NCBI GenBank assembly: GCA_964473565.1 | Contig: CAYYPI010000005.1 | Location: 1-52,859 of the forward strand | Direction: 5' to 3' | DNA from: an uncultured Gammaproteobacteria bacterium | GTDB lineage: Bacteria > Patescibacteriota > Patescibacteriia > Patescibacteriales > UBA12465 | DNA: 52,859 nucleotides | Shown: in pieces, positions 2,918-52,859 of the stretch | Position numbering within the stretch: the first letter of the stretch is position 1 | Layout of the letters: each line of letters begins with the position of its first letter | The notes under the pieces: model-generated | What the model was told of the DNA's origin: nothing | Seen by the model: only the letters and a program-made list of their open reading frames with translations | Database searches by the model: none | Program-made: the position numbers and the translations under genes

Positions 2918-2944
2918 AAGACACAAATATTAAAATTAATTATA

Positions 2945-3283: not shown

Positions 3284-3323
3284 GTGTTTATTGTTATTTA
3301 ATAATAAAATTAATTACCTAAGA

Positions 3324-3857: not shown

Positions 3858-3956
3858 ATATTTTTCTTGTTAATTATTAATATAAATTATATTATACATC
3901 ATTAAAGTACTTTTTTCAAGGATTATTAAGAATTTAAATTCAAAATACTATATATT

Positions 3957-4592
3957 ATGCATAAATTAATTTATGAAAAGAATCTATTTAAACAAGGCTA
4001 CAAGTATATTGCCGGAGTAGATGAGGTGGGTAGAGGGCCTTTAGCTGGACCAGTTGTTTCTGCTTCTGTATTAATTGATATTAATTTTTTAAATAATATC
4101 AAGAATTTAAAGGGCTTAAATGACTCTAAAAAAACAAGCTTGGAAGACAGAGAGAGGATATTTTCTATAATTCATGAAAACGTCATATCAGTGGGAATTG
4201 GTGTTTGTAACCCTAAAACTATAGATAAGATTAACATCTTACAGGCGTCACTGTTATCATCTAATAAAGCGGTACTTAATTTAAAAACTAAGCCAGATAT
4301 CGTTTTAGTAGATGGTAATTATAAAATTCCAAAACTAGACTATCCTCAAGAAGCTATTGTACAAGGAGATGCTAAAATAGCAATAATTGCTTTAGCTTCT
4401 GTAATTGCTAAAGTCTATAGAGATAAGTTAATGACAAAACTTGCATATAAATATCCTGGTTATGACTTTGAAAAAAATAAAGGTTACGGCACGCTCTATC
4501 ATAGAAAAAAAATAACTGAACTTGGACCATGCGCAATACACAGGCGCAGTTTTGCTCCACTAAAAAATGAAAAAAGTGATCTTATTCTTTAA
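3957..4592 (+). CDS. rnhB: Ribonuclease HII
   Basis: GVDEVGRGPLAGPV, DSKK, VDGN, ASVIAKVYRD, KGYGT, HRRSF. Confidence 0.96.
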   Translation: MHKLIYEKNLFKQGYKYIAGVDEVGRGPLAGPVVSASVLIDINFLNNIKNLKGLNDSKKTSLEDRERIFSIIHENVISVGIGVCNPKTIDKINILQASLLSSNKAVLNLKTKPDIVLVDGNYKIPKLDYPQEAIVQGDAKIAIIALASVIAKVYRDKLMTKLAYKYPGYDFEKNKGYGTLYHRKKITELGPCAIHRRSFAPLKNEKSDLIL

Positions 4593-5673: not shown

Positions 5674-5678
5674 AATAA

Positions 5679-7685: not shown

Positions 7686-7686
7686 A

Positions 7687-28783: not shown

Positions 28784-28911
28784 ATGTAATTAGTGTAGCG
28801 CAGTTGTATTTTTTTTTCAATAAAGGTGTTAATAATAATTTAATAATAAGTTTAGAATTTTTTAATAGCATTAATTATATATTAAGCTTAATTATAATTA
28901 ATTTTTTATTT

Positions 28912-29586
28912 ATGAAAATCTTAATAATTGATGATGACAAAGAAATCGTCAAATTCTTAAAACCTAGCTTAGAAGCTGAGTTTTATGTGGTAGATCAGGC
29001 TCATGATGGAGAAAAAGGTTCATTCATGGCCAGAACTAATCATTATGATTTAATTATTTTAGATTACATGATGCCTAAACAAAATGGATTAGAAACATTG
29101 AAGGAAATACGTAAGGATAAAGTACAAAGTTATATCATTGCTTTAACGGTAAAGTCTGAATTAAAAGATAAATCTAACTTATTTAAAGCCGGAGCTGATG
29201 ATTATTTAACTAAACCTTTTATTTTCGAAGAATTATTACTAAGAATTAAAGCAATATCTAAAAGACCGCCCTTAAAAAATATAAAGATTTTAGCTCTTGA
29301 TAATCTTAAATTAGAAGTGGATAGTCAAGAAGTCTATAGAGGCAAAAAGAAAATATACTTAACCAGAAAAGAGTTTTGTCTCTTAGAATATTTTTTAAAT
29401 AATATTAACAAGGTTTTATCTAGAGCTTTGATATTAGAAAATGTTTGGGATATCAATGCTGATCCATTTTCTAATACAATAGAATCGCATATATTAAATT
29501 TACGTAAAAAAATAGAAGCTCCTGGCAAAACTAAATTAATACACACTGTAGCTGGTAGAGGTTATAAGATGGCACTTAAACTATAG
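28912..29586 (+). CDS. OmpR/PhoB-family response regulator (orphan)
   Basis: MKILIIDDD (ATG 28912), LDYMMP, GADDYLTKPF, LTRKEF, LRKKI, IHTVAGRGY. Confidence 0.93.
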   Translation: MKILIIDDDKEIVKFLKPSLEAEFYVVDQAHDGEKGSFMARTNHYDLIILDYMMPKQNGLETLKEIRKDKVQSYIIALTVKSELKDKSNLFKAGADDYLTKPFIFEELLLRIKAISKRPPLKNIKILALDNLKLEVDSQEVYRGKKKIYLTRKEFCLLEYFLNNINKVLSRALILENVWDINADPFSNTIESHILNLRKKIEAPGKTKLIHTVAGRGYKMALKL

Positions 29587-37569: not shown

Positions 37570-38562
37570 TTATCTTTTAACAGCTAGTTGACCACAAGCA
37601 GCCTGACCTTCGTTGCCAAAACTACTTCTAAGAGTAGTTCTGATTCCTCTTTTCTCTAAAACTCTTTTAAAGTTTTGAATTTGTTTTTCTTCACTGGACT
37701 TAAAAACTCCTGAATCATTATATCTAATTAAATTCAGCATATATAATTTCTTATTTAAAATGTCAGCTAACTCATTAGCTAATTTTATACTATCATTTAC
37801 ACCTTTTATCACCACATACTCAAACATAACTTGGCGACCAGTTAACTCAATATATGAATCAACTAGTTCTAGCAATTCTTTTATACTTTGTTTTTTATTA
37901 ATAGGCATTAAGTGACTTCTAAGCTTGTCATTAGGAGCATGAAGCGAAACAGCTAAATTAACTTGTAATTTAGACTTAATCATTTTTTCAATTCCCTTTC
38001 TAATACCAACCGTAGAGATTGATATTTTTCTAGCACCAATATTAAATTTGTCTTCACTATTTAACATTTCAATAGCTCTAAAAACATTATCAATATTTAA
38101 AAATGGTTCACCCATACCCATAAAGACAATATTATCTACTTTTTCATTTTTTTCTTTTAATTTTCTAGCAAAATATAATACCTGCTCCACAATCTCTTTA
38201 GCACTGAGATTACGTATAAAGCCCATTTGTCCAGTAGCACAGAATTTGCAGCCCAAAGCACAACCAATTTGACTGGAAACACACACAGTATTTCTTTTAT
38301 TTAAGTTTTTAATAAGTACAGCCTCTACTTTCTGCTTATCTTCTAAAGTAATCACCGCCTTAACAGAAGCATCCTTTAAAACTACTTCCTGAGCATTTAT
38401 TTGCAAAGAGCAGCTATCCTCCAACTTAGCTCTTAAATCTTTTGGTAGAACACTAGCTTCCTGCCAAGATGATATAAAATCTTGGTATATTAGCTTATTA
38501 ATTTGTTTAATCCTAAAACTAGGACTAGCCTGAAGAAGTTCTGTTAATTTATCTAAATTCAT
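37570..38562 (-). CDS. rlmN: 23S rRNA/tRNA m2A radical SAM methyltransferase
   Basis: CVSSQIGCALGCKFCATG, FMGMGEP, SLHAP, AACGQL. Confidence 0.95.
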   Translation of the reverse strand: MNLDKLTELLQASPSFRIKQINKLIYQDFISSWQEASVLPKDLRAKLEDSCSLQINAQEVVLKDASVKAVITLEDKQKVEAVLIKNLNKRNTVCVSSQIGCALGCKFCATGQMGFIRNLSAKEIVEQVLYFARKLKEKNEKVDNIVFMGMGEPFLNIDNVFRAIEMLNSEDKFNIGARKISISTVGIRKGIEKMIKSKLQVNLAVSLHAPNDKLRSHLMPINKKQSIKELLELVDSYIELTGRQVMFEYVVIKGVNDSIKLANELADILNKKLYMLNLIRYNDSGVFKSSEEKQIQNFKRVLEKRGIRTTLRSSFGNEGQAACGQLAVKR

Positions 38563-38592
38563 ATTTATCTTAATTTACTCTCTCTAAAATAA

Positions 38593-38859
38593 TTAATGCG
38601 ACTTAATTCTTCTTTTTCGTATAGGATAATAGACTACTCCTATAATAATAAGCACTAAACCAACAACAAAAGCAATCCAGCCTATATAGGTAAAAAGGAT
38701 ATTATTATCAAACAACTTGATAGCGGCAATACTTAAAACAAAAGAAGAAAAGCCTGTTCTTATATAAGCAAGAGTATTGCGTTCGTTAGCAAAAACTGTT
38801 CTCTCTTGAGCAAGTAATTTACGTGATTTTAATGTTTTATCTATATTATTGTTATCCAT
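38593..38859 (-). CDS. DUF202 (YidH-like) membrane protein
   Basis: LAQERTVFANERNTLAYIRTG followed by two TMs. Confidence 0.85.
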   Translation of the reverse strand: MDNNNIDKTLKSRKLLAQERTVFANERNTLAYIRTGFSSFVLSIAAIKLFDNNILFTYIGWIAFVVGLVLIIIGVVYYPIRKRRIKSH

Positions 38860-39030
38860 AATAATAATTATAAATTATATAGTCATATATGTTTATATTG
38901 AATATGTTTCTAATTATTATTATACAATATCTTGAACTCTTTTCCTAACTTATCTATTTAAGTTTAATATAATAACTTAAGTTAATATATTAAATAAAGC
39001 AAAATAAACAATAATAGATAGAAAAATTAA

Positions 39031-39243
39031 CTAGCGATAACCTTTGCTACGCATGCAGTTTTCATAATAATCATCCATACTTATTCCTTGCATTGTTTGG
39101 GCGCTTTTTTCTGCTTTGCTAGCACAATTCCTAGCTGCTTGATAGGGGCGAAAACTAAACCAAAAAAAAGAGAAAATTAATATTATTAAAATTGTAACTA
39201 CAATGAATTTCTCTTTTTTAGAGAAAAAATCTAGTTTGTACAT
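39031..39243 (-). CDS. Small single-TM protein with a Cys pair
   Basis: TM helix, RP..A.RNC ... YENCMRSKG. Confidence 0.6.
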   Translation of the reverse strand: MYKLDFFSKKEKFIVVTILIILIFSFFWFSFRPYQAARNCASKAEKSAQTMQGISMDDYYENCMRSKGYR

Positions 39244-39421
39244 AGCATTATATTTATTATTAATTAAATTATTTCTAAACTTTAGCTTATCTATTTATAT
39301 TATATGCTACTTTAAAAAAAAGAAATAGTAACGATTAATCTATAAAGTCAATCTTTACAATCTCAATGGTAGGGGTATAATAATATAGGGCTTTATTAAT
39401 AATCATATTAACTTTTTTACT

Positions 39422-40468
39422 ATGGCTAGAATAACTGCAAAGGGATATTCTTTCAATGATGTCCTAATTGTACCTAAATACAACAAGATTGCTTCCAGGC
39501 GTGAAGTTAATTTTCAAACACAAGTCACTAAAAACTATAAAATAGATATACCAATAGTAGCAGCTAATATGGATACAATCTGTGAAAGTGAAATGGCTAT
39601 AGCTTTAGGAAAAATGGGTGGACTAGGTGTAATACATCGATTTTTAAGTATAGATCAGCAAGTAGGAGAAATTAAAAAAGTTAAAAAGCATAAACTAATT
39701 ACTGCAGCAGCAGTAGGTGTAAAAGATATTGAAGAGCGCGTAGATGCCTTAGCAAAAGCTGGGGTAAATATTTTAGTTTTAGACGTAGCTCATGGTCACT
39801 CCAAAAGAACTGGCAAAACTCTTGATTATATAAAGGAACGCTACCCAGAAATTGATGTCATGGTTGGGAATATTGCCACCAAAGATGCAGCTGAGTATTT
39901 TATTAGTAAAAGAGCTGACGCTATTAAAGTAGGAATAGGACCTGGTGCCATGTGCACCACTAGAGTTATGACAGGGGCTGGCATACCTCAAATCACAGCT
40001 ATTATGGATGTCTATGAAGCTAGTCAAAATAGAGTACCTATCTGTGCTGACGGAGGGATTAAATGTCCTGGAGACGTTGTTAAAGCAATTGGAGCTGGAG
40101 CTAACACTGTAATGATGGGCTCTTTACTTGCTGGTACTAAAGAAAGTCCTGGTAAAATAATTATTAAAGATAAAAAGAAATTTAAAGAGCATCGCGGTAT
40201 GGCTAGTTATCTAGCTACAATCAAGAGAATGCAAATGGATGGTAAAAAGGTAGAGAAAGATGTACATGTTGAAGGAGAAATGACACTAGCTTTATATCAA
40301 GGACCAATCGCTCCAGTTATTAATAAATTCTTAGGAGGCTTAGCCTCAGGTATGACTTACACCGGCTCTAAAATTATTGATAATCTAAGAGGAAAGGCTG
40401 ACTTTATTGAAATTAGCTCAGCAGGATACAATGAGAGCATTGCTCATGGAATAATAAATAAATTATAA
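39422..40468 (+). CDS. IMP dehydrogenase/GMP reductase family protein without CBS domains (probably GMP reductase)
   Basis: [40 protein letters not shown]. Confidence 0.85.
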
Positions 40469-40497
40469 TTAAAAAAAGAGGTTTATCAAAAGGATAG

Positions 40498-40529
40498 AAA
40501 AAAGGTGCAATTTTATTTGCACCTTTTTT
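40498..40529. terminator. Bidirectional intrinsic terminator
   Basis: AAAAAAGGTGCAA-TTTTAT-TTGCACCTTTTTT between convergent genes. Confidence 0.8.
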
Positions 40530-40555
40530 ATATAATACAAGATAAAATTATAAAC

Positions 40556-41650
40556 CTAATTGTTAGATTCTAAATGCTTATTGAAAAAATCAATAGTTCT
40601 CTGCCAAGCTAAAGATGAATTCTGAGTAATATTGTGATCATCTCCTTGATACTCGTGGTACTCTACAACTTTACCCTCTTCTTCTAGTGCTTCTTTTAAA
40701 CTTATAGATAACTCCAATGGCACAACTTCATCTCCAGTAGCTTGCTGAATTTCTATAGGCGCAGAAATATATTCTAAATAATTATGAGCTTCTAATTCAT
40801 TCCAAAACTCAGGATTTTCACTAGGTAGACCATTTTCTTGAATCAAGTTATGACTAAGGTCTTGCAAAAAAGGAATATCATCATTATATGTCTCTAACAT
40901 TTCTTTATATGTGCTAACAACTCCTGCCCAAAAAGAATAGGCTTTAATATCTTCTGTTATTAATGCAACCTTAAGACCAATCTCTCCTCCATTTGAATGC
41001 CCCCAATAAGCAAGTCTTTCTTGATCAACATCTTCATAATTCTTTAAATACTTAATAGCATTCATAGTATCAATTATATACTTTTCAGAAAAATGAGCAC
41101 TTACGGCTTCTCCCTCTGAATCATCATGGCCTCTTAAATCAGGTTTATAGGTCACAAAACCTGCTCTAGCTAAAGCAGCTTGATATGTAGGGTAGCTATT
41201 TATTGTTGAGTACTCATCAGGAGGGATATAGCCATGGACAAACATAATCGCTGGGAAACCATCTTCTGGCATCTCCATAAGTGGCACAGTTAATAGTCCA
41301 TCAATCTCCAAACCTTCTGACTGATAACTTGCAATGTATCTTTTATAATTATAACCATCTTCCAGCTCTTCTTTAATTGTAAAATCACCTCCTTGATAGT
41401 TATTATTTCTAAGTGCTTCTATAGACATGGGATGAGGACTCTTAGAATTAAGCTCTATGTATTCAGTATTATCTTTCTGCTTTAATGAATTAGACTCATT
41501 AGACGAGTTCTTATCTAGACTTGAGTTATTTACGCTTAAATTTTCATTATTTTCTGAATTATTTAAATACTTATTGAAAATAAAGAAACTGAGTATCAGT
41601 ATTAAAATAAAAGATAATATTATTAATAATATTTTGTGTTTATGTTTCAT
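40556..41650 (-). CDS. Membrane-anchored alpha/beta hydrolase (S9 peptidase-like)
   Basis: N-terminal TM; HGY, DLRGH, GHSNGG nucleophile elbow, DEVVP, DDHN. Confidence 0.88.
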   Translation of the reverse strand: MKHKHKILLIILSFILILILSFFIFNKYLNNSENNENLSVNNSSLDKNSSNESNSLKQKDNTEYIELNSKSPHPMSIEALRNNNYQGGDFTIKEELEDGYNYKRYIASYQSEGLEIDGLLTVPLMEMPEDGFPAIMFVHGYIPPDEYSTINSYPTYQAALARAGFVTYKPDLRGHDDSEGEAVSAHFSEKYIIDTMNAIKYLKNYEDVDQERLAYWGHSNGGEIGLKVALITEDIKAYSFWAGVVSTYKEMLETYNDDIPFLQDLSHNLIQENGLPSENPEFWNELEAHNYLEYISAPIEIQQATGDEVVPLELSISLKEALEEEGKVVEYHEYQGDDHNITQNSSLAWQRTIDFFNKHLESNN

Positions 41651-41793
41651 ATTTTTATTTTTTAATAATTATTAATTAACTATATAAAAAGTTATGATTA
41701 AAATGTATATATAATAATTTTAACAATTTTTGTAATTTATAACAATTTAGTTCAAGATTTATTTAAGAAAATAATTATTAAAACTAATTAAAA

Positions 41794-41821
41794 AAAAATA
41801 TAGTATTTAAACTATATTTTT
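41794..41821 (-). terminator. Possible terminator at the left edge of the island
   Basis: AAAAATATAGT-ATTTAA-ACTATATTTTT inverted repeat. Confidence 0.45.
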
Positions 41822-41997
41822 ATTAATGCACTCCGTTCGTGTATAGAACTCCGCTTTCAAGAGGCTTTCAATGGTTCTTGAGATTTTTCCATGGGCTTGT
41901 GAGTATGATTATATTCTATTAGAAATGAGACAAATGTAATACTATAAATGAATATAATTTTCTCAAATTGACAAATATTACTTTTATAATATTAGCT

Positions 41998-42432
41998 CTA
42001 ATACCTTCTTTTTCGACCTTTACTGCGACCGCCTCCTCTGTTATTAAGTATTCTAAGCTCTGGCCAGAAACCAATAACATGAAGAAATAATCCAGTCGAA
42101 GCAAATACAACAAAGTGAATTATATATGGCCAAATCATGCAATAAATATTCTCATCAAATATTTTTTCAAAAACTAATAATAAAATGGTTTGAAACCCTA
42201 AAAAAGTTCCACTACCTACGAAAGAATTAAAACCAGGAGAGAAACCATTAGCAGAATTATAATGAGACGTTCCATTTCTCGTTGAAAACTCATAAACAAC
42301 CCAAATACCCAAAACCAACACCACTAATATCCACTTCCATGGCCACAAATAAAAAATTATCTGCCATATATAAGAAGATATCGAAGATGCAGTTGGTATA
42401 GCTAGTGCTTGGCAAATCTCTTTTATTAACAT
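41998..42432 (-). CDS. Hypothetical membrane protein with basic C-terminal tail
   Basis: About three hydrophobic segments; starts 3 nt after the upstream stop. Confidence 0.65.
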   Translation of the reverse strand: MLIKEICQALAIPTASSISSYIWQIIFYLWPWKWILVVLVLGIWVVYEFSTRNGTSHYNSANGFSPGFNSFVGSGTFLGFQTILLLVFEKIFDENIYCMIWPYIIHFVVFASTGLFLHVIGFWPELRILNNRGGGRSKGRKRRY

Positions 42433-42435
42433 TTT

Positions 42436-43239
42436 TTATAAATATATATCAATTAATTTTTCTCCATCCCATTTTGTAAAACACTTAACTATCTTTTCTT
42501 TTATAATTGGCAATTTGTTACTTACCTCTTTGAAAACCTGTTGTAAATCATCAATATCATATGTAGAGTCGTGTAGATAAAAAATAAGGATATCAGCCTT
42601 CTCTATTTGATTATCCTTGTCTTTAATTTTTCTAACAATCAGATTCTTAAGATGTTCTGCCGGAATCCAACCGACTAATACCTGTCCTATTAAGGCTGTT
42701 TTGTTTTTATTGTTTATATCTTGAACTACTTTAATTTTAATATTTTCTCCATCATAGTCACTAATACCTCTATTTTCTAATTCTTCAACTTCTTTAAAGG
42801 CTCCATCTATTTTATTAAAATTTTTTATCTCAAACTCAACCGCCTTCCCACTTGAAATATTTTCCAATCTACCCCATAAGGCACTATACTTTTTTTCAAA
42901 ATTTTTTAATAATATACTTTTTATTTCAATATTTTTATTATCACTATTTTTGCACAAAATTAAATCATTATTTTCCTCTTTAGAAAAAACAGCAAAGTCA
43001 CGATCAGATAAATCTTTATTAATTAAATATAAAGAATGTAATTCTGCATACAAAGAATACCACTCGTTTTCCGTGCTATTCTTCTGATACTTATTTAATC
43101 TAGATATAAATTTATTTCTATCATCATTGGTCCTGTGATATTGCCACAATCTATCAATTAAAATACTTAGTCCATGTTTATTGCAATATTCAGGAGCATT
43201 ATCTATGAAATTTTTCTTTAAATCTTCAAATTTTGTCAT
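42436..43239 (-). CDS. Hypothetical protein, possible PD-(D/E)XK nuclease fold
   Basis: AEL helix followed by NDLIL...NIEIKS (E...D...ExK pattern). Confidence 0.5.
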   Translation of the reverse strand: MTKFEDLKKNFIDNAPEYCNKHGLSILIDRLWQYHRTNDDRNKFISRLNKYQKNSTENEWYSLYAELHSLYLINKDLSDRDFAVFSKEENNDLILCKNSDNKNIEIKSILLKNFEKKYSALWGRLENISSGKAVEFEIKNFNKIDGAFKEVEELENRGISDYDGENIKIKVVQDINNKNKTALIGQVLVGWIPAEHLKNLIVRKIKDKDNQIEKADILIFYLHDSTYDIDDLQQVFKEVSNKLPIIKEKIVKCFTKWDGEKLIDIYL

Positions 43240-43259
43240 AATAATAATTCAATAAGAAA

Positions 43260-43847
43260 ATGCTTTTGAAAATATTGTCCGATTTAATTTCAAAAGAAGA
43301 AACACGATCCACCACCTTCATGTTTTTTTAAAAGTTTCCTTCGCCTTAGAAAAATTTATTTCCTTACTTTTATTCACCACCACATTTCTTGCTTTATCAC
43401 AATCAATGCAAAACTTATTCCACAGATTACCATCTTCTTCAAACAGATTTTTACCAGTTATTTCTTTTAACACTTTATTCAACCTCTCTTTAGTTCAACA
43501 TTTTTTTATTAATATCTTTTCTATATCAAGATCTGCCAATCCTAGATTTGTGTAACCTTAATAGATAAATGATTCTAGAAATATCTTCAATAATTGATAT
43601 ATTTTTACAATTTTCTTTCAACCGCAATCTAGAAAGTTTATCGATTATCTTATTATAAATTTAGAATCATCTAAACTAAGCGCCATGTAATTCAAGGTAA
43701 AATATATAAAAAACCATAATTATCTGATAAAGCAACTTCAACAGCTGTGACTAAATCAACTAATATTAAAATAAATCAAAAATAAAAGAAAAAAAATGCG
43801 TAAGAATTTAAATAATAAATTAGCTCTAATAAATAAAAAACTAACAT
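43260..43847 (-). pseudogene. Decayed gene resembling a HEPN-domain protein
   Basis: Broken frames give LVDLVTAVEVALSD and LNKVLKEITGKNLFEEDGNLWNKF...KARNVVVNK..EI...KAKE with several stops and frameshifts. Confidence 0.45.
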
Positions 43848-43856
43848 TAAGCTAAA

Positions 43857-44414
43857 TTACTTCATTATTTTTAACTCTTTCCTAATATCTAAATAATCTG
43901 GTAACTTGCTTGAAACTAATTTCCAAAATTTATTTGAATGATTAAATTCTTTCAAATGACACAACTCATGAATAACAATATATTCCGCCATTTTATTCTG
44001 TAAATAAACTATTTTGTAATTAATATTTATATTACCTTTTTTCGAACAACTCCCCCATCTGGTCTTCTGATTCTTGATTTTTATATTGTTTATTCTAAAC
44101 TCATTATTTTTATTATATTTTTTAACAATATCCTCTACAATTTTATAAGCCTTATCTTTTTTCTTAAAAAAATCATCATCAGATAAATTATTGAATGCTT
44201 TATTTTTGTGATCATTAAAATAGCTTATTTTTTTAAGCAACCAATTTCCCTTTTCTTTTAAAAATTTTTCAACAATATTTTCATCAGCTGTGCTCGGTAA
44301 AGTCACAACAACGCTTGCATCGCAATACACAGCCACCCGAAGTCTTTTGGCTCGTTGGCTTTTTCTTATTTTATAATCAATTTTCTTATCATTAATTTTA
44401 ATCCTCCTGCTCAT
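43857..44414 (-). CDS. M48/SprT-like (YgjP, DUF45) metallopeptidase-family protein
   Basis: QKTRWGSCS, YIVIHELCHL.EFNHS..FW (HExxH); usual position after hsdR. Confidence 0.9.
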   Translation of the reverse strand: MSRRIKINDKKIDYKIRKSQRAKRLRVAVYCDASVVVTLPSTADENIVEKFLKEKGNWLLKKISYFNDHKNKAFNNLSDDDFFKKKDKAYKIVEDIVKKYNKNNEFRINNIKIKNQKTRWGSCSKKGNININYKIVYLQNKMAEYIVIHELCHLKEFNHSNKFWKLVSSKLPDYLDIRKELKIMK

Positions 44415-44415
44415 A

Positions 44416-47322
44416 TTAGAACTTTTTAATAATTACATCTACCAATCTGTTCAAATATTTATTAAAATCAGTGATTTTAATTTTATTCTTGTAATCAATT
44501 AGAATTATTACTTGCAAAACCTTTTTTATTTCTTTTATAAACTGCTCTCTCTTTGATGATTCCTGCCAATCCTTATCTAGAACATTTTCAAGTCTTTTAG
44601 TCATTTCTCTTATAAATTTAATAATCTCCTTTTGATTATCATTTTCAATATACTCACCAGAAACAACATATAAACCATACTCCTTTAAATTCATACCTAG
44701 CTCTTTTGCTTCCTCACTTTTTGATTTAATATCATTAAGTAGATTATAATATCTTTTAACCCTCTCGGCTAAATCAATTTGATTCTTTTCAAACTCGTTC
44801 CTGATGGTAGACAGCCTTTCACTAAACTTTTTAAAAACTGGGTTGTCATCAATATTGGCGCTTATTTCTTGTTTTAACATCTTCTCCAAGTTTAATGCTT
44901 TCTCCTCATCATCCATCTTATCTAGTCTTTCAAGCGTATACAAATCATTAACTTTAAGCTCTCTGAAATTCTTAGTTATACCCTCATAATCAATCTCATC
45001 TTGAATTATCTTTTTTACTTTTTCACCATATTCTGATAATAATGCCATATCATTATCAATTGCTCTAAATTCTTTCGCAAAAGCTAAATAAAAACTTGTG
45101 ATCCACTCAAACTTTCGTAAATACTTTTTTAAAAATGGATCGGGAGAAAGTATCTCAAATAATAATTTTAATTTACTATACTTGTTAGCGAAATATACTT
45201 GTTTGTCCTGATTATCAATAAAGATTTTCAAACATCTTCTCAGATTATCCATTGATGGATCCTCAATATTTATATTAACAAATACATCCATTACATCTTC
45301 TAAAATTCTCTTAAAATCTTTCTTCATTATATCCAAGTCAATCATTGCTGAATCAACAATGTTTTCATCAAAATTCAATGCATCATACAGATTTTTTGTA
45401 ATACCATAATAATCAATAATTTTCCCGCACCCCTTATTTGGATATACTCTATTGGTTCTAGCGATTGCTTGAAGCAAATTATGATCACGGAGTGGTTTAT
45501 CTAAATACATCACTTGCTCAATCGGAGCATCAAAGCCAGTCAAAAGCATATCACAAACCAATAAAAATTTTAATGGATGGTTTGTGTCCTTAAAATTCAC
45601 AATTATTTTTTCCCTTTCTTTTTTATTTGTATTATATTTTTTTAAATCATCTCCATCGCTGTTTCTATCTCCCGGAGAATATACAACAGCAGTCCATTCC
45701 TTTGGCACTAATCTATCGAAGTAGTCTTTATATTTTGCAGTCGCTTCTCTGTCGTAGCAAACTACTTGTGCTTTAAAGCCATTTGGCTCTACATACAACT
45801 TATAATGCTCGATGATATCTCTCGCTATTGCCTCCATTCTCTTTTCCAATTTCACAATGACCTCTTTCTTTCCATACTTCTTTGTTAATTCTTGTTTCTG
45901 TTTATCATCTAAATCTCTGGTCAATTCATCAAATTGCTGATCAAGCTTATCTTCATCAATAAAAAATTTGGAAAGACGTGCTTCGTAGGTCACTGGCAAG
46001 GTCGCACCATCGTCAATTGCCTCTTGTATGGAATAATAATCCAAATATCTCTCCCCTTCTTCTCCAAAATTTCTATGAGTATTCAAGGTTACCTTATCAA
46101 TAGGGGTACCAGTAAAGCCAAAGAAAAAAGCATTTTGCATTGTATCTCTCAAATTTATAGCAGACACCCCCTCATTATCTCGATGAGCTTCATCTGATAA
46201 AACAATAATGTTTTCATCCAAATTTTTTATATCATTACCTAATTCGGAAAACTTTTGTATTGTTGAAATAAATATGCCTCTTTCTGGAGATTTAATTTTC
46301 TTTTCTAAATCCTTTCTTGATTCAATTCTTGTCACATTCTGTCCTCCGCAATTTATAAAGGTATCGTAAATTTGGTCATCAAGATCAATTCTGTCTACTA
46401 AAATAAAAACTTTAGGATTTTTTAAACTTTCATCAAATCTCAATTTCCAGGCAGAAAAAAACATAGTTAAACTTTTACCACTTCCTTGTGTATGCCAAAT
46501 AAGACCTCTTTTTTTACTTCCATCCACAACTCTTTCAACTATTTTATTTGTAGCTCTTATTTGTTGATATCTAGCGATTTTTTTAATAGTTTTCCCTTTT
46601 TCTTTTTCAAATACAATAAAATTTTTAATGACATCAAGCAACCTATCTGGAGACAATAATGCAATTAATGTGTTCTCTAATTCTTCATCATCTTTTCTCT
46701 GGTCTTCCTCTTTCCAATGATTAAAGAATTGCTTTGGCGAATATGTTGAGCCGTAAACAGTATTTAAGCCATCGGTTGAAATATTAAAACAATTTGGCAA
46801 AAACATTTTTCTAGCAACTCTTTCGTATCTTTTGATTTGATCAATTCCGTTTTCATAATTAACAGTTAAGGATATGGTCGGACTTTTTGCTTCAATATCA
46901 ACAATAGGCAATCCGTTTAAAAATAACATTATATCGGGTCTAATGTTTTCTGTATCTCCTTCAAAGTAAAATTGATTAGTAACAACAAAATGGTTATTTT
47001 CAATATTTTTAAAATCAACGATAAAATAATCCTTTTTTTTCTTTTCATTGGATGCTCTCATGTTGACGCCATATCTCATCAAATTTAAAAAACCTTCATT
47101 GGTATCAATCTTCTTTATCTCCCTATAAACCGATTCGGCGACATCCTCGTCTACATCATTGATCTTTTTTACAGCCTTAATAATTAATGGCTTTATCAAA
47201 TATTCATTTTCGAAATCCCGAAAACCAGAAAAATCTTCAGGCTTAATATTTTCATAACCCAATTTTTCCTTTAAAAATTTGATTATGTAATTTTCAACTG
47301 TAGCTTGCTCGTTAAATTTCAT
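44416..47322 (-). CDS. hsdR: Type I restriction enzyme R subunit
   Basis: RPDIMLFLNGLPIVDIEAK, QIKRY, WHTQGSGKS, DEAHR, FTGTP, MLLTGFDAP, QAIARTNR. Confidence 0.96.
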   Translation of the reverse strand: MKFNEQATVENYIIKFLKEKLGYENIKPEDFSGFRDFENEYLIKPLIIKAVKKINDVDEDVAESVYREIKKIDTNEGFLNLMRYGVNMRASNEKKKKDYFIVDFKNIENNHFVVTNQFYFEGDTENIRPDIMLFLNGLPIVDIEAKSPTISLTVNYENGIDQIKRYERVARKMFLPNCFNISTDGLNTVYGSTYSPKQFFNHWKEEDQRKDDEELENTLIALLSPDRLLDVIKNFIVFEKEKGKTIKKIARYQQIRATNKIVERVVDGSKKRGLIWHTQGSGKSLTMFFSAWKLRFDESLKNPKVFILVDRIDLDDQIYDTFINCGGQNVTRIESRKDLEKKIKSPERGIFISTIQKFSELGNDIKNLDENIIVLSDEAHRDNEGVSAINLRDTMQNAFFFGFTGTPIDKVTLNTHRNFGEEGERYLDYYSIQEAIDDGATLPVTYEARLSKFFIDEDKLDQQFDELTRDLDDKQKQELTKKYGKKEVIVKLEKRMEAIARDIIEHYKLYVEPNGFKAQVVCYDREATAKYKDYFDRLVPKEWTAVVYSPGDRNSDGDDLKKYNTNKKEREKIIVNFKDTNHPLKFLLVCDMLLTGFDAPIEQVMYLDKPLRDHNLLQAIARTNRVYPNKGCGKIIDYYGITKNLYDALNFDENIVDSAMIDLDIMKKDFKRILEDVMDVFVNINIEDPSMDNLRRCLKIFIDNQDKQVYFANKYSKLKLLFEILSPDPFLKKYLRKFEWITSFYLAFAKEFRAIDNDMALLSEYGEKVKKIIQDEIDYEGITKNFRELKVNDLYTLERLDKMDDEEKALNLEKMLKQEISANIDDNPVFKKFSERLSTIRNEFEKNQIDLAERVKRYYNLLNDIKSKSEEAKELGMNLKEYGLYVVSGEYIENDNQKEIIKFIREMTKRLENVLDKDWQESSKREQFIKEIKKVLQVIILIDYKNKIKITDFNKYLNRLVDVIIKKF

Positions 47323-47323
47323 A

Positions 47324-48340
47324 TTATTTTTTATTGGTTATTTCAAAAATATTGTAAACAAATTTATTTCCGTTTAATGTCTCGGACTTTGAATAATTAG
47401 GGATCACATTTATTATTAAATTATTAAGACGCAAAGCCTCTTTAGTTGTAAACATTCCAATTCCATCACCAGCCTCATTTTTAGCATTTACCCCTGAATA
47501 CCCTTCTTCAAATATTTTCTCAATTTCGTCTTTTTCAATTCTAATACTCATCATTTCAATCTTAATTAAAAAATCTTTTGCTGACAATTTCTCAAAATTA
47601 ATAAAGATCTCTGAATTTGGCTTAGTATATTTAACAGCGTTCTCAAAAAAATTGTACATAGCCAAATTAAATATTTTATAATCTAAAACAACTTTATTTT
47701 TTTTGGCATAATCATCCTTAATTAAAAATTTAACCTCAACCTCTTTTTGTTTTAAATCTTCAAAAAAAGGCTGCGATATTCTCAATAAAACTTTCTTTAC
47801 ATTATGTTCAATAAAATTGTAATCACCACTTTCATCAAGTGATAGAACATTAAAACACTCTATATGTGCATTTACATCAAAAATTCTTTTATTTAAGTAG
47901 CATATAACTTCTGCGGTTAAATCTATGTCGTTTGATATTTCATCTTTTACCTTTTGCTTAAAAGTATCATATCCATAACTGTGCGTTGTAACATTTTCAC
48001 TGATCAAGCTTTCCATTTTTTGTTTCATCTGGCCTTGAATATTCTTGAGGGTATGAGAATGACTTTTTATTTTATTTGTATAATATTCAAAAAAGATAGG
48101 TGACATTAAACCCAAAGCATTCAATGTTTTATTAAATAGTTTCTTGCTTACATAAAGATCGTCGTCGTTAACTGATATCAATCTTGTGATTATGTTACCA
48201 TCTTTTTTGACTCCGCTCCGTATTCTCTTACCTGATAAAATAATTTTTCCATCACCGGGAATTTTATCAATATTTTCACAATCGGTTATATTGGAAGACA
48301 ATATTCTATTGAAATTGTTTTTAATTTCAAAATAAATCAT
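47324..48340 (-). CDS. Soluble histidine kinase with unknown N-terminal domain
   Basis: H-box-like HTLKNI, N box NFFENAVKY, F box IFEEGYS, G2 box GDGIGM; no TM segment. Confidence 0.8.
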   Translation of the reverse strand: MIYFEIKNNFNRILSSNITDCENIDKIPGDGKIILSGKRIRSGVKKDGNIITRLISVNDDDLYVSKKLFNKTLNALGLMSPIFFEYYTNKIKSHSHTLKNIQGQMKQKMESLISENVTTHSYGYDTFKQKVKDEISNDIDLTAEVICYLNKRIFDVNAHIECFNVLSLDESGDYNFIEHNVKKVLLRISQPFFEDLKQKEVEVKFLIKDDYAKKNKVVLDYKIFNLAMYNFFENAVKYTKPNSEIFINFEKLSAKDFLIKIEMMSIRIEKDEIEKIFEEGYSGVNAKNEAGDGIGMFTTKEALRLNNLIINVIPNYSKSETLNGNKFVYNIFEITNKK

Positions 48341-48801
48341 TTTAATTTACTTATCTCTTCTGTAATTATTTTAATAAATTCATATGTATCAGAATTTTTT
48401 GCTAAATAATTATCAGCTGACTTAATGTCGTCTTTTAAACTAAATCTATTGTGCCCAGAATACAAAATTACTCTTTTTGAATCTTTGTAGGTATTTTTTA
48501 AAGATTTAATAATTCCAATGCCCTCCTCATTTTCTGATAAAGTTTTCCCAACACCTTTAAAATCCACAAAAATTATTTGAGCTCTTTTAACAACCTCATC
48601 TTCGATATTTTTTAAATCTTTAATTTTATCAACAACCCAACCAGCTTTTTTTAAATTTGAAACGATGGCAAAATCTTCATCATCGACAAAAAGAATATGC
48701 ACATTGGATTTGTCGTGTTTTTTATTTTTTCTCCAAAACAACAATAAATCTTTCAAGTTAAAATTATTATTTTCAAATTTAAAAAGATTAATTTCACTCA
48801 T
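48337..48801 (-). CDS. Stand-alone response-regulator receiver (REC) protein
   Basis: ILFVDDE, IIFVD (phosphoacceptor), ILYSG, YLAK; ATGA overlap with the kinase. Confidence 0.82.
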   Translation of the reverse strand: MSEINLFKFENNNFNLKDLLLFWRKNKKHDKSNVHILFVDDEDFAIVSNLKKAGWVVDKIKDLKNIEDEVVKRAQIIFVDFKGVGKTLSENEEGIGIIKSLKNTYKDSKRVILYSGHNRFSLKDDIKSADNYLAKNSDTYEFIKIITEEISKLK

Positions 48802-48811
48802 ATTATTAATT

Positions 48812-49879
48812 TTATACTCTTATTCTACCACTCAAAAGGTCGTTCATAAGACCTTTTTTAAGTTGAATAAGTTTATTTTTAAATTGTTTATTAATTTCAA
48901 TTTTTTTATCAACTCCTGACAAAACTTTCACAAATTTTTTTTGTTCATCAAGAGGGGGTAGTAATATTTTTGCTTCCTTAACCCATTTAAAATGACGGTT
49001 ATACCCTGTGTTTGGAATATCTAAATTTAACAAAGAATAATATAAAAATTTTGGATCATTTTCTTTTTTACTTTGAAAAAGTTTTATGCCATCTGCTCCC
49101 ACAGCAAAAGGTTGATTAATAAATTTTACTACTCTTGTGTGATCTCCAAACAAAATAACTGGATAATTATTATTTACCAAATTATTATCATCAGTATAGC
49201 CACTTATATATTTTTGTCCTTGGTCAAAAATTGGATATTCACCTTTATTTTGATATTCTTTCTTTTTTAATCCTTTTATTTTTTTAAATGAACACAAGTC
49301 AATACAACTTATAAAACTAACTTTTGTTTTCAACTTTTTATTGAAAAATTCCCACATTAACCCCTTTTTAAGTTTTTCTATTTTTTTTATTATTTCTTCA
49401 GTTCTATCAATATCTACATCAACTTTAAATAAAATTTCAGCAATTTTGTCTTGTTCGTTTTTTTCTTTAGGAACCACGATATTCATTTCCTGATATTGAG
49501 ATATATAATATCGTTTATGATTGCCTACAGGAAAGTTTATTGATTTCATTTTCTCAAAAATAAATTTAAGGTTAATCTCTTTGTTTTTTTGCTTTAGTAT
49601 CTTTATTGCAGAAGATTTAATTTTAAAAGGAAAATCGACGAATTTACTATCTGTAGTAAAATCGTCAAAAATTATTACTGGTATATCTTTGTAAATCCCA
49701 AAATCTTCATTAGTATAACCTAAAATAAAAGACTTATTAGCAGTCAATACTGGAGTTTTATTGTTTTTATCATACGCAACGCTTTTAACGATATAATTAT
49801 CCGGCCTCTCATAATCCAATAAATCGCAAATTTTTTTCAGTTCCCATCCTTTTGGAATTGTTTTTTTTTCTTGATTCAT
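48812..49879 (-). CDS. hsdS: Type I restriction-modification specificity subunit
   Basis: IPKGW start, two TRDs, EQDKIAEIL and PPLDEQ helices, LKKGLM repeated twice. Confidence 0.92.
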   Translation of the reverse strand: MNQEKKTIPKGWELKKICDLLDYERPDNYIVKSVAYDKNNKTPVLTANKSFILGYTNEDFGIYKDIPVIIFDDFTTDSKFVDFPFKIKSSAIKILKQKNKEINLKFIFEKMKSINFPVGNHKRYYISQYQEMNIVVPKEKNEQDKIAEILFKVDVDIDRTEEIIKKIEKLKKGLMWEFFNKKLKTKVSFISCIDLCSFKKIKGLKKKEYQNKGEYPIFDQGQKYISGYTDDNNLVNNNYPVILFGDHTRVVKFINQPFAVGADGIKLFQSKKENDPKFLYYSLLNLDIPNTGYNRHFKWVKEAKILLPPLDEQKKFVKVLSGVDKKIEINKQFKNKLIQLKKGLMNDLLSGRIRV

Positions 49880-49881
49880 AT

Positions 49882-50336
49882 TTAACCTAAATGATTTTTG
49901 TTATACTCTGCTTCAGCTAAAGCATCAACATACTTAGCCCATTTTGCATTTCTCTTATGATGAAAATATTTTTTAAAGCCACTAAATCTGCCTTCCAGTT
50001 TCTTAACTTCATCATAAAGAGGCTTCATGTTTTCTGATTTTATGCCATAATCTCCATTCACTTGTTTTATTACCAGCTCACTATCCATCCAAACCTCAAT
50101 ATCATTTCTACAATATCCGGATGCTAAATCTAAGGCAAAAATTAATCCATTATACTCAGCTTGTGGTACTGTCAACTCACCAAGATATTTTGATTTTTCT
50201 AAAATAATATTTTCTTCCTCATCTAAAATTATCATACCACAAGCAGATTTTCCTTTCCTATTCTTCCCTTTAAGTGGGCGTTTTCTATTTTACAACAAGC
50301 ATCAGTTATTATTTTAACTTTTTTATATTTAGCCAT
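49882..50336 (-). CDS. RNase HI-family protein split by a -1 frameshift
   Basis: ATG 50336 gives MAKYKKVKIITDAC (first catalytic Asp); the -1 frame continues GKSACGMII...QAEYNGL...MDSELVIKQVNG.Y...VDALA. Confidence 0.75.
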
Positions 50337-50340
50337 TTTA

Positions 50341-52023
50341 TTAATATTTTAATTCTTTTAAATATTTTTTAACCTCTTTATCGATCAAATCCCTCTCCTT
50401 CTCCAACTTGGCAATATCTTTTAAAACTTCTTTTACATCAACAAGTTCTTCTTCATCGCTAGAATCAACATATCTTCGCACATTTAAATTATACTTGTTC
50501 TCTTTTAAAACCTTTAGCTCAACCACCTTTGCAAACTTATCTTGATCTTTATAAATATCATAGGTATTAACAATTTTCTCTATGTCCTTATTTCTGAGTT
50601 TATTTTGATTTTTACCTTCTTGGTATTCTTTCTCGGCATCAATAATTAATATTTTACCTTCTTTTTCTTTTGATTTATTCTTATTGAATATTAAAACAGC
50701 AGCAGGAATACCTGTTCCATAAAATAGTTTTGATGGCAAAGCAATCACAGCTTCTAAAATATCTTTTTCTATTATCTGCTTCCTAATTCTCCCTTCAATT
50801 CCACCTCTAAATAAAACTCCGTGAGGCACAACTACACCAGCCCTACCATTAGAATTTAAAGATTTAATTATATGAAGAATGAAAGCATAATCAGCATTTT
50901 TTGTTGGTGGCATTTCATAATCATCAAGTCGCCCGTATTTATTTGTTTTAAAGGCCTCATTCGCCCATTCTTTTATTGAATACGGAAAATTTGCAACCAC
51001 AATATCAAAGGTTTTTAGACTGCCGTCATTATTCAAAAATTGCGGATTCGATAAAGTGTCTCCTCGTCTTATATCAGCTCCATCAAGACCATGCAAAAAC
51101 ATGTTTATTTTTGCAATCGCATAAGTTCCAAGGTTCTGCTCTTGGCCATAAAGATATAGCGTGTTTGCAATTTTCTCCCCTCTCTTCTTTTTTAAATAAC
51201 TATATGCCTCCAGTAAGAATCCAGCGGAACCTACTGTTGGATCATAGACATGATCTTTTTCATGTGGTTTGAGAATATTAATGATTACCCTTTCAACTTC
51301 ACGAGGAGTGTAGAATTCTCCACCTTTCTTGCCTGCATCTGCCGCAAACTGCTCAATCAAATATTCATAGGCATCGCCAAGCAAATCGGAACTAATATAA
51401 TTACTGGCAAAGTTAAATTTTGAAAAATGATTTATTAAACTTTGTAAAGTTTCATTTGGAAATTTATCCTTGTTAGCAAAATCAAGATCATCAAATATTT
51501 TATCAAGCTTCGGGCTGTTGGCGTTTGTTAGTTTATCAAAAATTTCATTTAACTTCTGTCCAATATTCTCAGATGTTTCTTGAATCACCGACCAACGACA
51601 ATCTTTTGGAACTTGAAATCTGTGATTATGATCCATTCGAGCAATATCCCTATCTTTAAATTCATCCATAGCCTTATCGTATTCCTCATCCCAAACATCA
51701 CTAATTCTCTTGTAGAATAAAAGTCCGAATATATATTTTTTATAATCAGAACTATCAATTTTTCCACGTAAAATGTCAGCACTCCTCCAAAGGAATTGCT
51801 TTAATTGGGCAAGAGTCATTTTATCACTATCAAGCCCTTCCAATATTCCTTTATCATCGATTATTCTTTCAATGTCTTCTGGGCGATATTTTCTGTCTTT
51901 TCTCGGACCAACTCTTAGTGGGGTTATTTTCCCATCCTTTTCCCAATTCCTTAAAGTGTCCTGATTAACACTAAGCAAATCAGCGGCCTCACTTATATTT
52001 AATAATTTTTTTTCCTTTTTCAT
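50341..52023 (-). CDS. hsdM: Type I R-M methyltransferase subunit with N-terminal MerR/excisionase-like HTH
   Basis: LLNISEAADLLSVNQDTLRNWEKDGKI HTH; LWRSADILRG, GEFYTP, YDPTVGSAGFL, ANFPY, PHGVLFRG. Confidence 0.94.
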   Translation of the reverse strand: MKKEKKLLNISEAADLLSVNQDTLRNWEKDGKITPLRVGPRKDRKYRPEDIERIIDDKGILEGLDSDKMTLAQLKQFLWRSADILRGKIDSSDYKKYIFGLLFYKRISDVWDEEYDKAMDEFKDRDIARMDHNHRFQVPKDCRWSVIQETSENIGQKLNEIFDKLTNANSPKLDKIFDDLDFANKDKFPNETLQSLINHFSKFNFASNYISSDLLGDAYEYLIEQFAADAGKKGGEFYTPREVERVIINILKPHEKDHVYDPTVGSAGFLLEAYSYLKKKRGEKIANTLYLYGQEQNLGTYAIAKINMFLHGLDGADIRRGDTLSNPQFLNNDGSLKTFDIVVANFPYSIKEWANEAFKTNKYGRLDDYEMPPTKNADYAFILHIIKSLNSNGRAGVVVPHGVLFRGGIEGRIRKQIIEKDILEAVIALPSKLFYGTGIPAAVLIFNKNKSKEKEGKILIIDAEKEYQEGKNQNKLRNKDIEKIVNTYDIYKDQDKFAKVVELKVLKENKYNLNVRRYVDSSDEEELVDVKEVLKDIAKLEKERDLIDKEVKKYLKELKY

Positions 52024-52057
52024 ATAAAAATTTTAAATCAATTTTAACTATAATATC

Positions 52058-52120
52058 AGAATAGCACATCCACGAATAATGTCAAATAGAATATACATTT
52101 TTTCATAGGTTTTCATAGGT
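52058..52120 (-). promoter_or_regulatory. Probable hsdM operon promoter with an upstream tandem 10-bp direct repeat
   Basis: TTGACA (52085-52080), 16 bp, TATTCT (52063-52058) with extended TG; TTTCATAGGT x2 at 52101-52120. Confidence 0.55.
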
Positions 52121-52413
52121 TAAGATGTTATTTTAATTTTTATTTAATTTTTTTTACTTAAAATTAGCCAATTTTTGTGGTATTGTTATAGGACTGAATA
52201 TAAGCTATAATGTAAACAAATAAAAACAGACCATGACGGGGTCTGTAATTATTAGAGGGACTCTTTTTCTCTCTTTGGGAGATCCTTCCCTATTTATAGT
52301 TTGATATGTGTACAACTTAATTTTATCATAAATTTGGATTTAAAGAAATAAGGGATATAAAAAAAATATATAGATAGGATACTTGATGCTTGTCTATCTT
52401 ATTTTACGATTTC

Positions 52414-52680
52414 ATGTATAGAATGCTAATCTCTTACGATTTGATTTCCCCTAGAACAGATTATGAAGAACTTTATGACTACCTTCAATCTTTCAGGCAG
52501 TCAAAACATCCACTAGAATCTGTTTGGGTTGTTAGGACCAACAAGAAACAAGATGCTATAAGAGACGAACTCAAGGAAATAGTTGATGCCAATGATAAGA
52601 TATTGGTAGTTGATATAACTGGTTGCGCAGCAGCATGGCACAATATTCCATCTGAAGATTGGATAAAAATAGGACAATAG
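52414..52680 (+). CDS. Small Cas2/VapD-like ferredoxin-fold protein
   Basis: About 88 aa; LISYDL..., LESVW, D.ND.ILV pattern; probable ATG 52414. Confidence 0.6.
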   Translation: MYRMLISYDLISPRTDYEELYDYLQSFRQSKHPLESVWVVRTNKKQDAIRDELKEIVDANDKILVVDITGCAAAWHNIPSEDWIKIGQ

Positions 52681-52684
52681 AATA

Positions 52685-52725
52685 AAATAAAAAAGAATAA
52701 GACCGTCACTTATTCTTTTTTATTT
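52685..52725. terminator. Bidirectional terminator between the Cas2-like gene and tRNA-Trp
   Basis: Perfect 17-bp inverted repeat AAATAAAAAAGAATAAG-7 nt-CTTATTCTTTTTTATTT. Confidence 0.75.
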
Positions 52726-52807
52726 GTAGTAATTTTTTACCCATCAAAAAACAGGACTTACTTTACCTCCACAGGTGCGGGGATCTATTCACACAAGATA
52801 TTCTAAG

Positions 52808-52859
52808 CACGGGTGGGAGGAATCGAACCCCCGCTAGAGGTTTTGGAGACCCCTGTACT
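52808..52859 (-). tRNA. tRNA-Trp(CCA), 5' part cut by the window end, CCA tail not encoded
   Basis: Minus strand GGGGT-CTCCAAA-ACCTC anticodon arm, GGGGG-TTCGATT-CCTCC T arm, CACCCGT-G acceptor strand. Confidence 0.92.

Follow-up and report, generated by a model that had tools for sequence, protein, structure and literature searches.

Here we describe a group of seven tightly spaced, co-oriented genes on the minus strand (positions 52023-43857) of contig CAYYPI010000005.1, which was analysed over its whole length (52,859 bases; referred to as the window and used for all coordinates). The contig belongs to a genome (G000, labelled WIN in the trees) of 0.97 Mb and 95.6% completeness, whose relatives are Patescibacteria/Parcubacteria-type bacteria. 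In 5' to 3' order, the genes encode HsdM, an RNase HI-like protein, HsdS, a receiver protein, a histidine kinase, HsdR and a YgjP-like peptidase (Table 1). The locus is probably best explained as a Patescibacteria Type I restriction-modification (R-M) operon of mosaic structure, in which three layers may be distinguished: (i) the R-M core, i.e. HsdM fused to a helix-turn-helix domain (HTH-HsdM), HsdS and HsdR, together with the gene of a YgjP/SprT-like peptidase, (ii) a receiver-kinase phosphorelay pair of the PDC-M43 type, which would constitute a portable module settling inside or beside ATP-dependent R-M loci, and (iii) between hsdM and hsdS, a cargo slot that turns over its content quickly and here holds an extra RNase HI-like gene, broken by a 1-nucleotide (nt) frameshift in this assembly.

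PDC-M43 is already known as a catalogue candidate, and the locus adds a member to it rather than representing a new seven-gene system. An earlier note on this DNA had proposed that all seven genes form one integrated system, and that their combination does not correspond to any described one. The former proposal is not supported: the RNase H gene is replaced by other cargo in related loci and is frameshifted here, and both the HTH fusion and the peptidase are ordinary. As regards the latter, a check with PADLOC showed that the pair is already catalogued. The frames, order and strand of the seven genes were as claimed, the spacers of 4, 2, 10, -4, 1 and 1 nt hold with the ATG at 50336 as the start of the RNase H gene, and the notion of a Type I R-M operon with extra nested genes is borne out by the matches of HsdM, HsdS and HsdR.

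A receiver-kinase pair of the PDC-M43 type

The start of the kinase gene overlaps the stop of the receiver gene by 4 nt on the same strand, and the two genes are translationally coupled. The three features that define PDC-M43, namely a match to an A model, a match to a B model and adjacency on one strand, are all found in this pair, and no other PADLOC model strongly matches either protein. The 154-amino acid (aa) receiver protein has no match in Pfam; its earlier labelling as a receiver is nevertheless sound, as it is backed by the PDC-M43A match, the predicted structure and the invariant residues.

Among 13 aligned receiver sequences D40, D41, D80 and K135 are invariant, and Ser or Thr prevails at position 115. 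We take these residues to be the acidic pair (D40/D41), the acceptor aspartate (D80) and the conserved Ser/Thr (115) and Lys (K135) of receiver domains. The structural model (predicted local distance difference test score, pLDDT, of 82.5) matches solved receiver domains at a probability of 1.0. The protein is composed of about 34 residues followed by the receiver fold, with nothing after it, i.e. with neither a DNA-binding nor any other output domain. In two of 14 family members (those of genome G028 and of Shewanella) a transmembrane (TM)-like helix lies ahead of the receiver fold; the others, including the window protein, have only 32-40 residues there.

In the kinase, H96, N234, G280, G283, G291, G293 and G295 are invariant in 21 sequences. 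H96 is placed in the first long helix, and the remaining residues, among them those of the ATP lid, presumably belong to the N, G1 and G2 ATP-binding boxes. The model of this protein (pLDDT 87.6) is composed of a beta domain (residues 1-57), dimerization and histidine phosphotransfer helices (66-168) and a catalytic domain (176-336), and its top matches in PDB are WalK and HK853. Judging from sequence and modelled structure, the pair keeps every residue and fold element expected for a His-Asp phosphorelay. When set against a classical two-component system, both proteins agree in residues and fold, but the output domain is lacking.

We envisage that the soluble kinase would sense a cytoplasmic cue via its 57-residue N-terminal beta domain, autophosphorylate on H96 and pass the phosphate to D80 of the receiver, a chemistry predicted from the residues and folds described above. 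Since the receiver has no output domain, it must act by contacts with other molecules; once phosphorylated, it would do so through protein or membrane contacts.

A minor observation on the receiver concerns its residues 9-75 (48577-48777), which weakly match (E 6.9e-07) positions 450-514 of the 587 of a PADLOC Type II methyltransferase model (MTase_II, PDLC03279). Some methyltransferases may therefore carry a fused segment resembling the N-terminal part of the receiver. Elsewhere in the genome two-component genes are few: there are three HATPase_c matches, including the hsd-embedded kinase and one other kinase-like gene, and three Pfam receiver matches. An OmpR-type response regulator gene (Response_reg and Trans_reg_C domains) is located in the window at 28756-29586 on the plus strand, with no kinase gene detected adjoining it.

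Genomic contexts and spread of the pair

The contexts of the pair were compared in 13 informative related loci. Two further loci repeat others (L017 repeats L003 and L014 repeats L013) and were counted together with them, and L008 (1.2 kb) and L019 (1.5 kb) were left out as too short. The receiver and kinase genes are adjacent in all 13. By this indicative tally, R-M genes accompany the pair in nine loci (Type I in seven, Type III in one, Type IIG in one), and none is in view in the remaining four (Table 1). The earlier note had proposed a search for hsd operons containing receiver and kinase genes, and in these loci such genes do recur with R-M genes.

A word-based search identified 23 homologues of the kinase, and a profile search at E <= 1e-30 retrieved 194 of 1.84 billion cluster representatives (50% identity), nearly all of 320-356 aa. 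An orthologue of the kinase is present in one of 400 other genomes of the phylum sample. In the class sample the true pair was found in one of 400 genomes (G498), and the kinase was absent from the eight same-family and five same-order genomes of that sample. Seven of the eight class-sample matches (L044-L050) were dropped as generic kinases, matched in catalytic-domain positions alone and in frames of 369-1001 aa; a Polaromonas locus (L004), with 19% identity over kinase residues 227-321, was discarded likewise. A pattern scan of viral contigs revealed no relatives of the kinase, and no match was obtained in 50,697 phage records. Among 72,556 plasmid records, the window kinase found one distant match, and the kinase of the Shewanella plasmid found itself alone. 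The pair is rare and patchy, as is the case for mobile accessory genes, and this distribution suggests a horizontal origin.

The 21-kinase alignment was too diverse for the locus scan, for which an alignment of 15 sequences was used. In the tree, the window pair forms a supported clade with those of L009 and L010 (99/99), and the pair of L013, a locus without R-M genes, is sister to that of the Type I locus L011 (94/94). The six loci of the same layout (the window included) do not form one supported clade. Identities among them are 63-74% for HsdM, 51-70% for HsdR (with the exception of the near-identical L015 and L002), 58-84% for the receiver and 42-75% for the kinase. Because a pair residing outside R-M genes groups with one from a Type I operon, and because loci of identical layout lack a single supported clade, the pair seems to be autonomous and portable. 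We read it as a module that stays with one operon over long stretches, yet is able to move.

Table 1. Features of the window and of related loci
Locus	Feature	Position	Strand	Evidence or remarks
Window	promoter-like site (TTGACA, 16 nt, TG, TATTCT)	52058..52085	-	10/12 matches, best-scoring minus-strand site in scan; 35 nt upstream of hsdM start
Window	hsdM with N-terminal MerR-type HTH (560 aa)	50341..52023	-	Pfam N6_Mtase 9.7e-112, HsdM_N 3.8e-27, MerR_1/HTH_17 at residues 7-56
Window	RNase HI-like gene, upstream frame (34 codons, then TGA)	50232..50336	-	translation; aligns with residues 1-31 of intact 152-aa relatives
Window	frameshift site, short A/G run with one base fewer than close relative	50248..50258	-	the two frames overlap there
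Window	RNase HI-like gene, downstream frame (117-aa open reading frame, ORF; open from 50289)	49882..50235	-	Pfam RVT_3 7.8e-12
Window	hsdS (355 aa, two target-recognition halves)	48812..49879	-	Pfam Methylase_S in two stretches; PADLOC Specificity_I 2.8e-63
Window	single-domain receiver protein (154 aa), PDC-M43A	48337..48801	-	PADLOC PDLC04646 1.3e-35, plus two further M43A models
Window	soluble histidine kinase (338 aa), PDC-M43B	47324..48340	-	PADLOC PDLC04647 1.5e-50, profile positions 7-340 of 347; Pfam HATPase_c
Window	hsdR (968 aa)	44416..47322	-	Pfam HSDR_N 7.2e-36, SWI2_SNF2 1.7e-71, ResIII, T1R_D3-like, T1RH-like_C
Window	YgjP-like/SprT-like zinc metallopeptidase (185 aa)	43857..44414	-	PF01863 2.3e-42; HELCH motif
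L002, L009, L010, L012, L015	same layout: hsdM-(cargo)-hsdS-receiver-kinase-hsdR(-peptidase)			
L002	slot content: CBASS 1TM effector and cyclase	76-1900		
L015	slot content: fused PARIS-type AriAB	6895-8394		
L010	slot content: PDC-S13 and one uncharacterised gene			
L009	slot content: NYN nuclease and two small genes			
L012	slot content: two uncharacterised genes			
L011	Type I, other order: hsdM-receiver-kinase-hsdS			
L016	Type I, other order: receiver-kinase-hsdS-hsdR			
L018	Type III, pair between mod and res	202-6138		PADLOC MTase_III 1.7e-181, REase_III 4.7e-229
L007 (genome G028)	pair after Type IIG enzyme and methyltransferase-like gene			
L003/L017	no R-M gene in view; after PARIS-type AriAB gene, near serine recombinase			
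L013/L014	no R-M gene in view; among RHS-like genes			
L051 (G498)	no R-M gene in view; after ribonucleotide reductase genes			
L042	no R-M gene in view; conjugative Shewanella plasmid, beside HigB toxin-antitoxin pair			

The hsdM-hsdS slot and its RNase HI-like gene

As judged from the compared sequences, the gap between hsdM and hsdS is a cargo slot with fast-changing content. The most telling case is that of L015 and L002, which are 92-94% identical in the receiver, the kinase and HsdR; their HsdS proteins share 57% identity and their cargo genes are different. Because backbones so nearly identical carry different cargo and HsdS, turnover of the slot appears to be fast, and the two loci offer a clear natural case of one cassette having been exchanged for another within a Type I operon. 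The phylum sample contains a single further close HsdM (G335, 71% identical), after which yet another uncharacterised gene follows before the contig ends. The earlier note had proposed a check for RNase H genes recurring with hsd genes; such a gene is absent from the slot in all five divergent loci of the same layout, and has been seen there in this lineage only. We read the RNase H gene as strain-specific cargo rather than as a functioning component of the R-M or the phosphorelay machinery.

The RNase H gene, previously taken for one frame, is in fact divided between two (34 codons and the 117-aa ORF) separated by a -1 shift. The RVT_3 match is found in the -1 frame relative to the first and spans profile positions 17-117 of 123, leaving the first 16 uncovered, and the RNase HI models of NCBIfam match the 117-aa ORF weakly. 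A single intact frame over the full RVT_3 domain is thus lacking in this assembly. The alignment with intact 152-aa relatives begins in the upstream frame and continues in the downstream one, the switch occurring in a short A/G run near 50253. In this alignment, the first conserved Asp of the relatives falls in the upstream frame and the remaining ones in the downstream frame; these may include the acidic residues of the active site.

A 703-nt contig assembled from the metagenome of another study (run X2) is approximately 94% identical to the window and covers positions 49844-50523, where it runs from the end of hsdM through the RNase H gene into the start of hsdS, in the same order. One additional base behind 50253 in this contig abolishes the shift. 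The contigs of X1, the probable source run, do not span the frameshift site, and an X4 contig that ends 3 nt past it is uninformative. The gene is therefore split either by a real 1-nt deletion or by an assembly error. Programmed -1 frameshifting was set aside, since the close relative lacks the shift.

RNase H of this RVT_3 type was found in 275 of 400 other genomes of the phylum sample. The operon gene belongs to the same family as these Patescibacteria proteins, whose intact members related to it have 152 aa, but it differs from them as an extra, divergent copy that is nested among hsd genes and, in this assembly, carries the frameshift. The second copy of the genome, encoded on contig 1, is 38% identical to it. 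The nearest intact paralogues (59% and 53% identical) are located in two other Patescibacteria genomes, where both adjoin a radC-like gene and neither belongs to an R-M locus (L040:9597-11631 and L041:9013-10215); in one of them a ParE/Phd toxin-antitoxin pair lies in between. No PADLOC model matches the RNase H ORF, and a pattern scan of viral contigs revealed no relatives of it.

The restriction-modification core and its accompanying peptidase

The assignment to Type I R-M systems is unambiguous from sequence, with the domains of HsdM, an HsdS with two target-recognition domains, and an HsdR with nuclease and superfamily 2 motor domains. HsdM scores 278.7 bits against TIGR00497 of NCBIfam (cut-off 242.75), and HsdR 570 bits against TIGR00348 (E 5.6e-171; cut-off 284.55).

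The MerR-type HTH at the N-terminus of HsdM and the peptidase gene after hsdR are, on sequence evidence, usual traits of Type I operons, because the fusion is present in at least 202 protein clusters and the peptidase follows hsdR in unrelated plasmids. All 120 clusters among those listed contain both the HTH and the methylase domains, and those of them that bear names belong to Patescibacteria groups. The peptidase had been assigned to family M48; it is indeed a peptidase, but of the YgjP-like family. A gene of this family (PF01863) follows hsdR in L012, L015 and the Acetobacter pasteurianus plasmid pAPA32-020. The latter (hsdM-hsdS-hsdR-peptidase) resembles the window operon in the order of hsdR and peptidase and in the peptidase family (tblastn, PF01863), but Type I operons of this kind lack the phosphorelay pair and the RNase H gene. 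Nothing usable on a link between hsdR and the peptidase was found in the literature, and the link was examined on plasmids instead. The same family is represented inside the Type I locus of a Klebsiella plasmid, whose record has an incomplete gene table, and in a Eubacterium plasmid its context shows no link to R-M genes. In the Klebsiella locus (L053; NZ_AP018751.1), a YecA-family gene is nested after hsdS, the SprT-like peptidase gene is placed further on, and DUF262 genes and an Hhe gene follow; altogether, 354 Klebsiella plasmid records matched the peptidase.

Comparison with known defence systems

Genes embedded in BREX, DISARM and Type I R-M systems gave rise to the PDC candidates, which are described as untested (Payne et al., bioRxiv 10.1101/2024.01.29.577857; PMC12988326). 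Genes nested in hsd operons, which the earlier note had described as back-up defences, are recognised as a source of defence candidates in the former work. The window pair agrees with PDC-M43 in the matches of both proteins, in the order of receiver and kinase, and in being embedded in an R-M operon. It differs as a divergent Patescibacteria branch, with E values of about 1e-35 and 1e-50 against the A and B models, as compared to 3.7e-52 and 3.1e-67 for the G498 pair and 2.5e-88 and 5.2e-132 for that of the Shewanella plasmid, and in a shorter receiver devoid of the TM-like N-terminal helix present in two of the 14 family members. In a figure legend of the DefensePredictor paper, HATPase and REC domains are given for a system that is predicted but not validated, and that may or may not be the same family.

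The closest tested analogue of the pair is Detocs, in which the kinase DtcA is accompanied by DtcB, a receiver-only buffer, and DtcC, a receiver joined to a PNP effector, so that the kinase signal activates the fused effector (Rousset et al., bioRxiv 10.1101/2023.01.24.525353). Both systems share a His-Asp phosphorelay in an anti-phage context and a receiver protein without an output domain. The differences are that the window operon has a single receiver gene and no third gene for a receiver-effector protein, and that the Detocs kinase is described with tetratricopeptide repeats, whereas the window kinase has no such repeats by Pfam and a 57-residue beta domain in the model. PADLOC gave no match to the kinase beyond PDC-M43, although whether this library includes Detocs models was not checked. 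Because it has no effector-bearing receiver, the window pair is not Detocs.

Another relevant case is PrrC, which resides in the EcoprrI hsd operon as a back-up defence embedded in a Type I system (summarised by Payne et al., bioRxiv 10.1101/2024.01.29.577857). The similarity lies in extra genes nested between hsd genes, which may guard or back up restriction. PrrC, however, is an ABC-ATPase anticodon nuclease, and the window contains a kinase and a receiver without a nuclease or ATPase effector; no PrrC-type ABC-ATPase or anticodon nuclease was matched by any gene of the operon in Pfam, PADLOC or NCBIfam.

Type I R-M operons with nested genes are a hunting ground for new anti-phage systems, and the locus described here is a compact example from a bacterium with an ultra-small genome. 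The catalogued candidate PDC-M43 can now be viewed as what is predicted, from residues and models, to be a complete kinase-receiver phosphorelay, with Type I, Type III and Type IIG contexts, which makes it a good target for experiments.

Possible roles of the pair and of the operon

Several points weigh against the mosaic interpretation and against an independent role of the pair. PDC-M43 has no described function, a full-text literature search for its name gave no match, and neither kinases nor receivers are mentioned by Payne et al. (bioRxiv 10.1101/2024.01.29.577857) in their main text. The related loci were retrieved by pattern scans that started from close relatives of the kinase, several of them from sibling data sets, and the tallies are neither unbiased nor independent, so that they should be treated as indicative; the tree is poorly resolved, with 6 of 11 inner branches open. 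The single-transcript status of the operon relies on spacing, on the lack of internal terminator-like sites and on a weakly specific promoter scan. The RNase H gene may be functional, as the 94% identical X2 contig carries it at the same position without the shift. Finally, neither a toxic nor an effector domain was seen in the operon pair, an absence more in keeping with a regulator than with a defence system of its own, and the placing of the pair beside restriction genes, considered below, may mean functional coupling.

With these points in mind, it is quite possible, and the reading that we favour with some reserve, that the pair acts as an autonomous sentinel or back-up switch, triggered when infection or blocked restriction is sensed; the analogy is with Detocs and PrrC. 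Roles other than this one and the next share the remaining likelihood. A somewhat unlikely but serious competitor is that the pair serves specifically to regulate the R-M enzyme, i.e. as an alleviation or activation switch acting on HsdR, Res or the assembly of the complex, with no defence activity of its own. This would agree with the presence of R-M genes at nine of the 13 related loci and with the placing of the pair immediately upstream of the helicase-nuclease gene both in the window, where 1 nt separates the stop of the kinase gene from the start of hsdR, and in six of these nine loci (hsdR in L002, L009, L010, L012 and L015, res in L018). It would also agree with the lack of an effector domain and with the similar depth of divergence in the clade of the window, L009 and L010 (66-67% identity for HsdR, 74-84% for the receiver, 67-75% for the kinase). 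On the other hand, the pair accompanies three types of R-M system with different subunits, four of the 13 loci have no R-M gene in view, and most HTH-HsdM operons seem to do without it (at least 202 clusters as against 23 or 194 kinase matches, although the word-based, profile and cluster searches are not strictly comparable). A more far-reaching proposal, which we consider distinctly improbable, is that PDC-M43 is an effector-less phosphorelay guarding Type I, Type III and Type IIG restriction enzymes and that the RNase HI-like gene is a new defence cargo. The kinase would then detect a phage product, or restriction that is blocked or overwhelmed, and the phosphorylated receiver (membrane-anchored in some members) would induce a protective or abortive state. 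Were this true, PDC-M43 would join Detocs as the second defensive two-component system and would be the first phosphorelay known to guard R-M systems. That the pair is instead an ordinary housekeeping two-component system, present in the hsd operon by chance, is hardly credible. Such systems are so few in this genome that any kinase might be a housekeeping one, but the pair is rare and patchy (one of 400 genomes of the phylum sample, none of eight of the same family), it is found repeatedly in R-M loci, of three types in all, it lacks a DNA-binding output domain, and it matches a model set built from genes embedded in defence systems.

The nested RNase H gene raises further alternatives. In the integrated seven-gene system, RNase H would act on RNA:DNA hybrids, the phosphorelay would control restriction, the HTH would autoregulate, and the peptidase would participate. 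The co-orientation of the genes, spacers of at most 10 nt, the lack of an internal terminator-like site and the same hsdM-RNase H-hsdS order in the X2 contig are all consistent with such a system. It is, however, very improbable, given that all five divergent loci of the same layout carry unrelated cargo in place of RNase H, that the gene is frameshifted here and its nearest paralogues are unlinked to R-M genes, and that both the HTH-HsdM fusion and the trailing peptidase are widespread without the pair. It is also unlikely, though less so, that the RNase H gene is functional, owing to an assembly error or to ribosome slippage on an A-rich run, and is itself a new defence cargo. The slot is filled in all five relatives of the same layout, in four of them with content that includes a known or candidate defence gene (CBASS, AriAB, PDC-S13 or the NYN nuclease); the shift sits in a short homopolymer run and is removed by an extra base in the close relative, and the operon copy is additional to a second, more typical RNase H gene of the genome. 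Against this stand the lack of a PADLOC match for the ORF, the location of the nearest paralogues beside radC (in one case with ParE/Phd) outside R-M loci, the fact that a programmed shift should be conserved, yet is missing from the relative, and the lack of relatives in viral contigs, which leaves no phage link evident.

Transcription signals and neighbouring genes

The operon is probably read as one transcript from the promoter-like site just upstream of hsdM, to judge from sequence signals. The promoter scan is weakly specific, with 83 sites as compared to 65.4 +/- 6.6 in shuffled sequences. A terminator-like hairpin of the upstream unit is located at 52246-52226, and a scan of the operon found no terminator-like sites within it. 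Neither Rfam families nor meaningful repeats were found in the region 41000-52859, and no tRNA genes were found in 38000-52859. A perfect, AT-rich inverted repeat of 17 nt with a 7-nt loop is present at 52685-52725, about 130 nt from the end of the contig.

Approximately 620 nt downstream of the operon, a two-gene cassette (41998-43239, minus strand) encodes a soluble protein of 267 aa and a protein of 144 aa, in which several hydrophobic helices are combined with a basic tail. Pfam and NCBIfam gave no match for either, the sole hit being a weak match of the 144-aa protein to the PADLOC '2TM effector' model (E 0.0085). This cassette could be another defence-type pair.

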